A stretch of 64,000 bases of DNA, from the NCBI GenBank assembly GCA_963723515.1, contig CAVRQT010000003.1:256001-320000 (forward strand). Direction: 5' to 3'. Source of the DNA: Vulcanimicrobiota bacterium. Its GTDB lineage: Bacteria; Vulcanimicrobiota; Vulcanimicrobiia; Vulcanimicrobiales; Vulcanimicrobiaceae. The notes beneath the pieces are model-generated. The model was not told the origin of the DNA and searched no databases. It was given only the letters and a program-made list of their open reading frames with translations. Of the stretch, positions 22,776-37,587 are shown piece by piece. A program made the translations under genes and the position numbers. Each line of letters starts with the position of its first letter. Positions within the stretch are counted from its first letter, which is position 1.

Positions 22776-22855
22776 GTCCCAGTGTCATGCTGAGCCTGTC
22801 GAAGCATGACTGGCGGTCATGTCACACTTCGACAAGCTCAGTGTGACACAGGGAC
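22776..22855. repeat. Inverted doublet (REPIN-like) of the 27-bp hairpin repeat between convergent nadK and pyk
   Basis: GTCCC..GTCATGCTGAGCCTGTCGAAGCATGAC (22784-22810), 10 bp, GTCACACTTCGACAAGCTCAGTGTGAC (22821-22847)..GGGAC. Confidence 0.9.
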
Positions 22856-22937
22856 AATCGCATGGAACAAAACCAACGATCTCCGGCTTCAACTTCTAAT
22901 TGCTCTCAATCAGGTTCTCTGCATCGTAAAGCTGTCG

Positions 22938-24368: not shown

Positions 24369-24391
24369 GTCATGCTGAGCTTGTCGAAGCA
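24369..24391 (+). repeat. Dispersed copy of the hairpin repeat directly upstream of pyk
   Basis: GTCATGCTGAGCTTGTCGAAGCA. Confidence 0.85.
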
Positions 24392-26188: not shown

Positions 26189-26287
26189 TGGGGCCCCGCC
26201 CGCGACACTTCGACAGGCTCAGTGCTTGGGCGGGGGCGGCGTAGATCGCTTTTCGTCGCATCGTGACGAAATGCGATTGGAGCGCCA
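26189..26287. repeat. GC-rich composite palindromic element containing a hairpin-repeat copy (26205-26224)
   Basis: GGGGCCCCGCCC..ACACTTCGACAGGCTCAGTG..GGGCGGGGGCG...GGAGCGCC; similar ends to the element upstream of rbfA. Confidence 0.6.
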
Positions 26288-33341: not shown

Positions 33342-34252
33342 ACATCCACTACCGCTTGGAGTGGCGTGACGAACATCCACTCGTCTTAGCGATTGGATTC
33401 TTTGACGGCCTGCATCGTGGACACGCTGCGATTCTCAACGAACTCCGCCGGCTCCGAAAACCAGGGTATCGAACCGGCATCTTAACGTTTTCAAATCATC
33501 CGGCGACGCATTTGCGAACGGCGCCTCCGCCGTTGATTAACACCGTCGAGGAACGGCTCGGTCTGCTTGCCGATGCGGGCATCGAAGAATGTTTCTTCGT
33601 GCCCTTTGACGAGCGTATCGCGGCGCTCTCGCCAAACGATTTTGTCGATGGGGTGCTGATCGCTGCGCTTTCCGTCAGCGCTGTTGTCGTGGGGGAGAAC
33701 TTTCGCTTCGGCAAAGGCCGTAGCGGCGACGTCGCGTTTGCGCGAAGTGCGTTGGAGCGATGCAACGTCCGCTTTACCGCCGTCGCCAACCAGATCGACG
33801 GCGGCCAGAGAATTTCGAGCACGCGAATTCGTGAACTGATTGCAGAAGGGGAGATTGGGAAGGCGGATGCGTTGCTCGGACACCCATTTACGTTGCGAGG
33901 CCGCGTGATGTTAGGGGCGGGTCGCGGACGATCGTTGGGGTTTCCAACCGCAAATCTGAGCGTCAGACCGGGAAAGATTTTGCCGGTTGACGGCGTCTAT
34001 TCAGCCGTCGCTCGCCACGACGGGCGCGATTTCGCGGCGCTCGTATCGATCGGGACGAATCCGACGTTCGATGGAACGACGCGGAGCGTCGAAGCATGGC
34101 TGCGTGATTTTCGCCGTTCGATCTACGGAGAGGAGCTAGCGGTGCGAGACTTGCGCTTCGTGCGGGCTCAGCAGCGGTTTGCGAGCCCTGAGGAATTGCG
34201 CGAACAGATGGAGCAGGATGTCGTGGCTGTCGCCTACCCATCGTATGGGTAG
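33338..34252 (+). CDS. ribF: Bifunctional riboflavin kinase / FAD synthetase
   Basis: GFFDGLHRGH, ISSTRIR, GR.LGFPTAN, G.NPTF, VEA. Confidence 0.96.
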   Translation: MNIHYRLEWRDEHPLVLAIGFFDGLHRGHAAILNELRRLRKPGYRTGILTFSNHPATHLRTAPPPLINTVEERLGLLADAGIEECFFVPFDERIAALSPNDFVDGVLIAALSVSAVVVGENFRFGKGRSGDVAFARSALERCNVRFTAVANQIDGGQRISSTRIRELIAEGEIGKADALLGHPFTLRGRVMLGAGRGRSLGFPTANLSVRPGKILPVDGVYSAVARHDGRDFAALVSIGTNPTFDGTTRSVEAWLRDFRRSIYGEELAVRDLRFVRAQQRFASPEELREQMEQDVVAVAYPSYG

Positions 34253-34289
34253 AAACTTCGTGCCGTTCTCGCGCGTTGTAAGGAAGCAT

Positions 34290-34769
34290 ATGAAACGTCT
34301 CCTCCCGATCGTTGCGCTCTTGGCTGCGCTACCCAGCGCGGCGTTTGCCGGCGCTTCGGTCGGCAAGCCGGCTCCCAACTTTTCCGCTCCGCTTGCCTCA
34401 GGGGGCAAATTGACGCTATCGAGCTTGCATGGGAAACCGGTCTATTTGAACTTCTTTGCGACCTGGTGCGCACCGTGCAATGCGGAAGCGCCCGACATCA
34501 ATGCGCTGCAAAAACAGTATGCGCGCCGCGGTTTCGTCACGATCGGCGTGGATGAGCGCGAGGATGCCGACAAGGCAAAGAGCTTCGTGCACAAATTTGC
34601 GCTGGTCTATAAGGCGATCGTTGATGAGAACGGCGACGTGTTAAATCCGTACGGCGCGATCGGCCTGCCGGTGCACGTGTTCATCGACCGCCGCGGCAAT
34701 GTCAAACTGATCCGCAACGGCGAGATGTCCAAAGCGGAGATGGACTCGGCAATCAAGTCCATTTTGTAG
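34290..34769 (+). CDS. TlpA/ResA family thiol-disulfide oxidoreductase
   Basis: Signal peptide, GKPVYLNFFATWCAPC, GLP. Confidence 0.9.
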   Translation: MKRLLPIVALLAALPSAAFAGASVGKPAPNFSAPLASGGKLTLSSLHGKPVYLNFFATWCAPCNAEAPDINALQKQYARRGFVTIGVDEREDADKAKSFVHKFALVYKAIVDENGDVLNPYGAIGLPVHVFIDRRGNVKLIRNGEMSKAEMDSAIKSIL

Positions 34770-34777
34770 TTTCTAGT

Positions 34778-35007
34778 GTCACACTGAGCTTGTCGAAGTG
34801 TGACTTGGAGTAAAACGTGCGTGGACACAGCCCCTTTGTCACACTGCGCTTGTCGAAGTCCCTGTGTCACACTGAGCTTACCGAAGGTCGCGGTGTCACA
34901 CTGAGCTTGTCGAAGTGTGACTTAGAGAAAATCGGGCGAAGAGAAGGTCCCGATGTCACTGCGCTTGTCGAAGTCCCTGTGTCACACTGAGCTTGTCGAA
35001 GTGTGAC
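34778..35007 (+). repeat. Array of 6 hairpin repeats GTCACACTGAGCTTGTCGAAGTGTGAC on the 3' side of the GIY-YIG gene
   Basis: Perfect copies 34778-34804, 34895-34921, 34981-35007; variants at 34838, 34866, 34955. Confidence 0.95.
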
Positions 35008-35284
35008 TTCGGCACAATTCGCGAATCGTCGCGAAGTCGCCGTTGATCAGCGCCGTCTTCTTATCGTGGCTCCAACCTTTGAGCTTCTTTTCGCATTGGA
35101 TGGCGTCCAGCACTTCGTGAAAATCTTGCGACCATACCAGCCGCACGGGCCTGCGGCCAAAAGTGTAACAGGTTGTGAAGGTGCCGTATTCGTGCTCGCC
35201 TACGCGTTTCTCAAGCTCGCTCGTGATCCCGATGTAGTATGTGCCATCCGAGCACAGCAACATGTAGACGTAATAGATTTTCAC
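34982..35284 (-). CDS. Stand-alone GIY-YIG nuclease (UPF0213/YhbQ-like)
   Basis: YYVYMLLCSDGTYYIGIT..L..R..EH..G....YT..RRPV.LV, A...EKKLKGWS..KK.ALI. Confidence 0.92.
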   Translation of the reverse strand: MKIYYVYMLLCSDGTYYIGITSELEKRVGEHEYGTFTTCYTFGRRPVRLVWSQDFHEVLDAIQCEKKLKGWSHDKKTALINGDFATIRELCRSHTSTSSV

Positions 35285-35291
35285 ATGGCGA

Positions 35292-35582
35292 CATTACCGC
35301 TCGGTCACACTTCGACAAGCTCAGTGTGACACTGGGACCCTGCTCCGATGCCCCATTACCGCTCGGTCACACTTCGACAAGCTCAGTGTGACACTGGGAC
35401 CCTCCTCCGATGCCCCATTACCGCTCGGTCACACTTCGATGCTTCGACACTTCGGCATCGCTCAGTGCAGGCTATGCTCAGCACAGGCTCGCTCAGTGTG
35501 ACACAGGGACTTCCTGTAAGGCTCGATTACCGCTCGGCCACACTTCGACAAGCTCAGCGTGACACAATAGCTCAGTGTGACA
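35292..35582 (-). repeat. Array of 4+ hairpin repeats in opposite orientation on the 5' side of the GIY-YIG gene, in 62-bp tandem units, one copy nested
   Basis: GTCACACTTCGACAAGCTCAGTGTGAC at 35304-35330 and 35366-35392; nested copy 35428-35502; variant 35537-35563; half copy about 35570-35581. Confidence 0.95.
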
Positions 35583-35622
35583 CGGGGCCCTTCGGTGGCG
35601 GGATTTCGAAAAAGCGGCCACC

Positions 35623-37587
<1,965 letters not shown>

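Follow-up and report, generated by a model that had tools for sequence, protein, structure and literature searches.

Results

A GIY-YIG nuclease gene between inverted hairpin arrays

We analysed a stretch of 64,000 nucleotides (the window) from a Vulcanimicrobiota bacterium (GenBank assembly GCA_963723515.1, contig CAVRQT010000003.1, positions 256,001 to 320,000 of the forward strand), in which a small gene for a GIY-YIG nuclease is flanked on both sides by oppositely oriented DNA hairpins. The comparisons described below strongly support a cognate pairing of this protein with the hairpins, an analogue of the repetitive extragenic palindromes (REPs) and REP-associated tyrosine transposases (RAYTs) with another class of nuclease. 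This kind of system is already in print under the name Ssn (Chenal et al. 2025, Nat Commun, PMC11893778); the window locus adds an uncharacterised clade, whose distinct hairpin is missed by the published motif.

The gene (34982..35284, minus strand), found as an open reading frame (ORF) with a GTG start, encodes a single-domain, Ssn-like protein of 100 aa. The Pfam GIY-YIG family (PF01541) matches residues 4-75 with E=2.4e-14, no second Pfam family is found in the protein and no NCBIfam model matches it at E up to 1. Homologues conserve Y7, Y17, R27, H31 and E65, which, from what is generally known of the GIY-YIG superfamily, we take to have catalytic roles. Since the closest solved structures are the UPF0213 proteins 1zg2 and 1ywl (E ~1e-10), the label of a stand-alone UPF0213-like gene, given to it in an earlier note made from the sequence, is fair. 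The protein ends in ...SHTSTSSV*, and a hairpin copy at 34981-35007 overlaps the end of the gene and supplies its last seven codons and the stop, as that note had also proposed; the tail beyond residue ~92 is repeat-encoded. Among 16 close proteins, five terminate in a hairpin-encoded H[TP]STSS[VAG] and one begins within a hairpin-encoded stretch. The genome contains three GIY-YIG matches: the window gene, UvrC and a small YhbQ/UPF0213-type gene outside the window (C3:112536-112810) that has no hairpin repeats nearby.

All hairpin copies at the locus share a 15-nt core, CTGAGCTTGTCGAAG. The left array, 3' of the gene (34776..35007, plus strand), was delimited by repeat and pattern searches and consists of six hairpin units with cores in plus orientation at 34784, 34844, 34872, 34901, 34959 and 34987. 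The six left copies of the earlier note thus hold as core matches; three of them are full 8-bp-stem hairpins with exact cores (34778-34804, 34895-34921 and 34981-35007), and the other three, with cores at 34844, 34872 and 34959, are degenerate or truncated. The right array, 5' of the gene (35304..35582, minus strand; same searches), has inverted units with exact cores in minus orientation at 35310, 35372 and 35543. Two full hairpins (35304-35330 and 35366-35392) are arranged here as a 62-nt tandem unit, accompanied by a near-complete copy (35537-35563), a half copy (35569-35582) and a nested three-module hairpin at ~35428-35505 (DNA fold -18.2 kcal/mol, z -3.3). The three exact copies, the nested form and the half copy agree with the four or more inverted copies first counted on this side. 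One arm of the nested hairpin bears three CTTCGA modules and the other arm three GCTCAG modules, with spacers of 2 nt and 9-10 nt.

When up to two mismatches were allowed, the core matched the window 14 times, compared with 0.16 matches expected from 100 shuffles. Folded as single-stranded DNA (ssDNA), a single unit reproduces the 8-bp stem and 11-nt loop that had been read by eye, with -6.8 kcal/mol and a z of -2.2 to -2.6, which is modest for one copy. No Rfam family was detected in 34600-35800 at E up to 5, indicating that the hairpin is not a catalogued RNA. The gene and the innermost inverted pair of 35-nt ends (34973-35007 and 35304-35338, 97% complementary), each made up of GTCCCWG, a TGTC tag and the hairpin, define by their inverted repeats a 366-bp cassette at 34973..35338 on the minus strand.

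Dispersal of the repeat in the source genome

The source assembly comprises 2.11 Mb in four contigs and is 88% complete. Genome-wide core counts allow one mismatch unless stated otherwise. At this threshold 141 copies were found (87 of them exact), and 183 at up to two mismatches. The 141 copies group into 86 clusters, the largest of which is the GIY-YIG locus with eight copies, and the derived densities are ~14 per kb at this locus versus ~0.44 per kb over all spacers. Only 29-31 of the 141 copies lie deep within called ORFs, as judged with a crude longest-ORF caller that assigns 88% of the genome as coding. Among spacers between convergent, tandem and divergent genes no striking preference was seen, nor was there an orientation preference relative to the upstream gene; a bias with respect to the replication strand appears as a weak trend only. 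No match to PF01797, the Y1 transposase family of RAYT and IS200 elements, was detected in this 88% complete assembly.

The copies fall into three classes. Class A (26/141) has the full hairpin with GTCCCWG in front and matches the cassette ends, so that most copies in the genome lack the full 8-bp hairpin. Class B (80/141) retains only two flanking pairs and carries a GCCACCGTAATCG tail. In class C (35/141) an inner core is nested between an outer CTGAGC and TCGAAG, as AGCCTGCA-core-TG within the outer unit, which suggests that new copies arise in the loops of existing ones.

A gene for a ComF-like, competence-type phosphoribosyltransferase (C3:1046625-1047560, minus strand) is bracketed by class A hairpins, two in plus orientation on its left and two in minus orientation on its right, and likewise terminates in a hairpin-encoded SHTSTSSV. 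This single case may be relevant given the effect of SsnA and its NTS repeat on Neisseria transformation.

The insertion site and the repeat in related genomes

Thirty relatives of the source genome were searched; one of them, flagged unpublished, enters the tallies only. Since the relatives are mutually non-independent, co-occurrence of the repeat and the gene is given as counts and not as a test. Within the same family, core counts range from 0 to 463. Seven relatives have at least 50 copies, and six of these (G002, G006, G007, G008, G016 and G017) encode a close homologue of the window protein (E below 1e-24); in the seventh, G001, which is 77% complete, none was detected. High copy number accompanies the gene in seven of the eight genomes with at least 50 copies among 19 family members. 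In two sister families, covered by 12 genomes, core counts are 0-4 and all GIY-YIG hits are distant. A Y1_Tnp domain is found in 4/31 genomes, each with 0-1 core copies, and in none of the repeat-rich ones.

Long hairpin arrays occur in some relatives, such as G006, where the homologue is followed by at least ten tandem copies; the genome totals are 463 in G017 and 417 in G006. In three near-complete relatives the cores are unequally split between the strands (53 vs 21 in G016, 95 vs 51 in G007 and 156 vs 261 in G006), which could reflect a replication-strand preference, as expected of an enzyme acting on ssDNA.

In the window, the cassette and its arrays lie between two convergent genes whose stops bound the insertion site. 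The left neighbour (34179..34769, plus strand) is a tlpA-like gene for a thioredoxin-fold protein (Pfam AhpC/TSA and Redoxin), and the right neighbour (35623..37587, minus strand) encodes a Clp-type double AAA+ ATPase, also assigned by Pfam. Orthologues of clp are present in 30/30 relatives; the order ribF-tlpA-clp is retained in the 19 in which the region was recovered, and the contig ends there in a 20th. No GIY-YIG match was found between tlpA and clp in any of these 20 relatives, and in several of them the two stops are ~0-60 bp apart. Since none of the 20 carries the gene at this position, the cassette is, on this sequence comparison, a lineage-specific insertion at a variable spot between convergent genes. 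The same gap contains five core copies and no gene in G017, a single copy in another relative and, on a second contig of a same-genus genome, one hairpin with an unrelated small ORF. The 3' part of clp is present on two contigs of the same-genus genome G001 (C14 and C46, matching the Clp protein encoded in the window at 93% and 91% identity), probably owing to a strain mixture or to an assembly break at repeats.

Gene-hairpin association across phyla and covariation of the stem

Homologues were then surveyed with one genome per species. At least 591 places encode a relative of the window protein, and 79 loci were retained, from Eremiobacterota/Vulcanimicrobiota, Nitrospinota, Nitrospirota, Bacteroidota, Acidobacteriota, Ignavibacteriota, Pseudomonadota and Patescibacteria. 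Every gene was placed on the plus strand before hairpins were counted, and up to two mismatches to the core were allowed. A core lies within 150 bp upstream of the gene in 42/79 loci and at or just after its 3' end in 45/79, and core density falls from 5.18 per kb close to the gene to 0.113 per kb at distances above 300 bp. Upstream cores are in plus orientation 53 times and in minus orientation 9 times, and downstream cores in minus orientation 57 times and in plus orientation 15 times. With a generalised tagged hairpin, a copy was found upstream in 43/79 loci, downstream in 45/79 and on both sides in 33/79, versus 18 of 3600 control windows (0.5%) taken from these loci. Where the 15-mer is lacking, the hairpin takes variant forms in which inserted sequence separates CTGAG from TCGAAG; examples are CTGAGCGGAGTCGAAG and long inserts that pair with themselves. 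The 15-nt core is conserved while the proteins diverge to ~50% identity.

A set of 483 distinct hairpin units from the source genome and 88 loci was used to examine pairing within the repeat. The collection was made at up to three mismatches and yielded 592 units, of which ~55, by our own estimate, are perhaps chance matches in the 2.1-Mb genome; these would lower the pairing percentages but leave covariation unaffected. Stem pair 6-22 covaries (CG 157, GC 100, AT 65), as does stem pair 5-23 (CG 195, TA 87, GC 40). Within the core, CTGAG and CGAAG pair as C:G, T:A, G.A, A.G and G:C, and the G.A and A.G positions are near-invariant (449/483 and 446/483 distinct units). Compensatory variants that keep the pairing are GTGAG..CGAAC, from six sources, and CCGAG..CGAGG. 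We infer that the tandem G.A is a structural element of the helix; the folding program scores it as a loop.

In a tree of the homologous proteins, the cassette proteins of two loci, L019 and L026, are near-identical (tree distance ~0.016), and their metagenome-assembled genomes (MAGs) are labelled Eremiobacterota and Acidobacteriota, respectively. This likeness reflects either recent transfer or a binning error.

Relationship to the Ssn nucleases

As described by Chenal et al. (PMC11893778), Ssn systems consist of single-domain GIY-YIG nucleases of ~94 aa and cognate hairpin repeats. The Neisseria meningitidis enzyme SsnA binds and cuts ssDNA only, on one strand, beside the NTS hairpin repeat, and SsnA and NTS act in Neisseria natural transformation. 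In the same account, ssnA homologues (CDD cd10448), accepted at a tblastn E<1e-10 with N. meningitidis SsnA as reference, have at least one SRM repeat in 71% of cases and repeats on both sides in 42%; four of them cut their own repeats, and the NTS-ssnA-NTS layout is likened by the authors to insertion sequences and to REP/RAYT.

An NTS-pattern search covered 401 genomes of one order, a tally that includes one genome (G329) flagged unpublished, and revealed NTS-rich genomes among them. In one of these, the window protein and an SsnA-type gene flanked by NTS are reciprocal best matches, with 36.6% identity over residues 2-90 and E ~1e-8 per genome. That gene has an NTS in plus orientation 49 bp upstream and another in minus orientation 30 bp downstream, which is the layout of the window locus. 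Used as a query against the source genome, the SsnA-type protein matches the window gene only (E=3.8e-7) and not the YhbQ-like gene. Overall, the window protein is 35-37% identical to NTS-flanked SsnA-type genes (E 1e-7 to 1e-10). The tag HGTCWY, taken alone, is present in the hairpin units as TGTCAC or TGTCAT.

Three named Bacteroidota genomes with members of the window clade (loci L115-L122) each hold 4-5 small GIY-YIG genes, and within a genome the hairpin type differs from one such paralogue to the next: SsnA-type paralogues occur with NTS-like TGTCATTCC..GGAATC hairpins and the window-family gene with CTGAG..TCGAAG. Two further hairpin types at these loci directly adjoin tRNA-like sequence.

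The strings TCGAAGG, CCTGAGC, GTCGAAG and 'Eremiobacter' are absent from those supplement files of PMC11893778 that were searched. In a literature search that left subscription journals mostly outside its reach, we found no description of the clade, of the CTGAG..TCGAAG hairpin or of a bacterial transposon based on a GIY-YIG enzyme. For a bacterial transposon or REP system built on such an enzyme, PMC11893778 was the single relevant article found.

Signs of mobility and decay

Three cassette copies that lie together on a contig of a different Eremiobacterota genome are 89% and ~75% identical over ~365 bp; the hairpin marks the limit of their similarity, which sets in at the upstream one. Cassette genes at three places contain an in-frame TAG stop (L034:3001-3291, G010 C1:2937250-2937519 and G026 C5:172781-173056), which suggests decaying cassette copies.

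The window itself contains a gene-less inverted doublet of cassette ends (22776..22860; cores at 22790 in plus and 22827 in minus orientation), in which GTCCCAG and a hairpin are separated by a 10-nt spacer from a second hairpin and CAGGGAC, resembling a derivative of the kind seen as miniature inverted-repeat transposable elements or as REPINs (REP doublets). This doublet lies within a 183-bp stretch that is missing from the same-genus genome G001, where the flanking convergent genes abut directly. Solo core copies are located by pattern search at 24375..24389 (plus strand) and 26208-26222 (minus strand). Taken as sequence comparisons, the paralogous copies, the stops and the doublet would fit a unit that is copied and decays. 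The compared assemblies showed neither a recent insertion nor a target duplication nor an excision junction, and no clean target-site duplication is definable from the one filled/empty pair, in which the genomes are ~78% identical and the insert has extra sequence. A duplication of AAACGAATTT at the left edge of the 183-bp insert is uninterpretable.

Discussion

A candidate Ssn-type nuclease and its hairpin

The earlier note had proposed that the GIY-YIG protein and the hairpins are a cognate pair akin to REP/RAYT, and this proposal has gained strength from the association at 79 loci, the co-occurrence in relatives, the lack of a detected Y1 transposase and the homologue biochemistry described in PMC11893778. 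Its statement that no characterised system of this type is known has been overtaken, since Ssn/NTS, with its SRM repeats, is of that type. We consider it probable (at roughly 75%) that the window protein is an Ssn-type nuclease that recognises a folded, TGTC-tagged ssDNA hairpin through the CTGAG/CGAAG module and cuts beside the hairpin.

By analogy with SsnA, binding to the folded hairpin would require single-stranded DNA and would be confined to one of the two strands. The recognition element would consist of a TGTC-tagged stem with an invariant CTGAG/CGAAG heart (two Watson-Crick pairs, the tandem G.A/A.G mismatch and a G:C pair) enclosing either a short loop or a variable distal insert. 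The predicted cut would fall a few nucleotides beyond the hairpin, next to the end that bears the (T/C)GTCAY tag.

Several observations weigh against this reading. At 34-37 of the 79 loci no core is found on a given side, and most copies in the source genome (80 of class B and 35 of class C out of 141) are without the full 8-bp stem. No homologue was detected in G001 (77% complete), G012 and G013 (96% complete), yet these genomes have 22-59 copies; conversely, G004 and G014 have a close homologue but no canonical core, and a CCGAG..CGAGG variant adjoins the gene instead. The tblastn matches linking the window protein to SsnA-type genes (E 1e-8 to 1e-10, identity ~35%) are at or below the strength of the homologue threshold of E<1e-10 used in PMC11893778. 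In a protein tree of 92 rows by 100 columns, built with a quick method from few columns, six SsnA-type genes form one clade (SH-like approximate likelihood-ratio support 97) and the window family stands apart on a long branch; a topology uniting both groups is not rejected (p-AU, approximately unbiased test, 0.85). The SRM pattern, HGTCWYN(0-2)YYVSBRHN(0-5)WNVSBRGN(0-2)RNCYNB, misses the hairpin: it has nine matches in the source genome, compared with 7-19 in five first-order Markov simulated genomes, none of the nine is on a core copy and the canonical units are unmatched. The three Bacteroidota genomes with the window clade lack SRM enrichment in the table of PMC11893778 (0.96x, 1.84x and 0 hits). 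Each is scored in that table with a cd10448 homologue, and since each holds several small GIY-YIG genes, the table cannot tell which gene scored. Finally, four Ssn homologues have been studied biochemically in that paper, whereas the window clade is known from sequence alone.

A further step beyond an Ssn-type nuclease would be to regard the 366-bp unit as an autonomous mobile element, which would be the most compact type of insertion element in bacteria and the first based on a GIY-YIG enzyme. The ~140 solo, doublet and nested hairpins would then be its gene-less derivatives, and the CTGAG/CGAAG helix, found in at least eight phyla, the universal recognition module of the clade. This is conceivable, and we think it rather less likely than its negation. 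Along such a route, ssDNA would be cut at hairpins and templated repair of the break would copy the unit to new sites, including the loops of existing hairpins, so that the enzyme may contribute to the spread of its own repeat.

Other explanations

An alternative that we hold only tentatively, as less likely than not on the present comparisons, is a domesticated host function, in which nuclease and repeats, not selfish or no longer so, mark genes and restrict or tune the recombination of incoming ssDNA, the cassette being a relic or an autoregulatory layout. It draws on the role in natural transformation proposed for SsnA and NTS in Neisseria (PMC11893778), on the class A hairpins that bracket the ComF-like gene and on the single intact gene copy per genome in most relatives. 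However, the site between tlpA and clp is a lineage-specific insertion and the ComF bracket is a single anecdote from an uncultivated lineage; the ~365-bp paralogous cassettes and the decayed, stop-bearing copies resemble instead the turnover of a selfish unit.

It is more doubtful still that the hairpins are primary and the gene a guest, such that REP-like or terminator hairpins were spread by the host or by another enzyme and served as targets for a homing-type GIY-YIG gene, which would lie beside them without having produced them. Enrichment of the copies between genes, the 22-59 copies in genomes without a detected homologue and the nested copies, taken as hairpins accumulating within hairpins, would all be accommodated. 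Against this, the strict inverted orientation of the flanking hairpins relative to the gene holds across phyla and every paralogue in one genome has its own hairpin type; conservation of the 15-nt core despite protein drift to ~50% identity points to recognition by the encoded protein, and the 100-aa protein is without the extra DNA-binding domain typical of homing enzymes.

That a RAYT/IS200-type tyrosine transposase encoded elsewhere in the genome acts on the repeats as on classical REPs, with the GIY-YIG gene a bystander, is very improbable: the general likeness to REP and bacterial interspersed mosaic element (BIME) arrays and a RAYT gene that could lie outside an 88% complete assembly speak for it, but PF01797 was found neither in the source genome nor in repeat-rich relatives, the four of 31 genomes with Y1_Tnp have 0-1 copies, the tag is TGTC and not GTAG, and CGTC/TGTC-tagged REPs are reported without a transposase in PMC3733652.

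Implications

If the window protein is an Ssn-type nuclease, pairs of this type extend to an uncultivated phylum, the closest loci coming from Eremiobacterota MAGs, and a separate, very widespread protein clade is added to them. Surveys based on the SRM pattern would undercount such systems, since the pattern misses the hairpin of this clade. The TGTC tag and the CTGAG/CGAAG tandem-G.A helix offer a concrete candidate recognition element, which would be a new specificity for enzymes used as ssDNA tools. The insertion at a conserved site, the ~365-bp paralogues, the gene-less doublets and the nested copies provide comparative evidence on the mobility of the cassette. The family is, moreover, a candidate enzyme for the TGTC-tagged REPs that have been reported without a transposase.

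Comparison with known systems

The window protein shares its fold family and size with the UPF0213/YhbQ proteins (1zg2, 1ywl); the YhbQ-like gene of the source genome differs in having no flanking repeats and in being unmatched by the SsnA-type query. GIY-YIG homing endonucleases of the I-TevI type combine the nuclease with a separate DNA-binding domain and are found in introns or free-standing in phage. Such an enzyme was considered for the window gene and ruled out: the protein has one domain and 100 aa, and the gene lies on the chromosome in a spacer flanked by housekeeping genes.

With REP/REPIN-RAYT systems the locus shares inverted short palindromes that flank an enzyme gene and are spread between genes, as well as inverted doublets and arrays. 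It differs in that the enzyme is a GIY-YIG protein, with no Y1_Tnp found, and in the tag, which is TGTC and not GTAG. GIY-YIG enzymes do not use covalent tyrosine chemistry, unlike the HUH Y1 enzymes.

Closer in the repeat itself are the CGTC/TGTC-tagged REPs defined by Di Nocera, De Gregorio and Rocco (2013, PMC3733652), which are reported there to lack a dedicated transposase. Common to both are the TGTC tag at the terminus, an A as first base of the stem, head-to-head dimers and clusters. Those REPs have a stem of 8-9 bp, a loop of 4-5 nt and a short tail; their stem and loop dimensions fit the window unit only if CTGAG/CGAAG is counted as stem, with its tandem G.A. The window stem differs in its conserved tandem G.A and, often, a distal insert. 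The string 'ctgag' has 0 hits in the main text of that article.

The nearest counterpart is Ssn. In both, a single-domain GIY-YIG protein of ~94-100 aa with no extra DNA-binding domain is encoded next to a hairpin that lies upstream in sense and downstream in antisense orientation, the hairpin is present in tens to hundreds of dispersed copies, and a (C/T)GTCAY tag stands at the 5' end of the unit. The hairpins themselves differ: where that of Ssn reads ATTCCCGC..GCGGGAAT, the window hairpin is CTGAG..TCGAAG with its tandem G.A.

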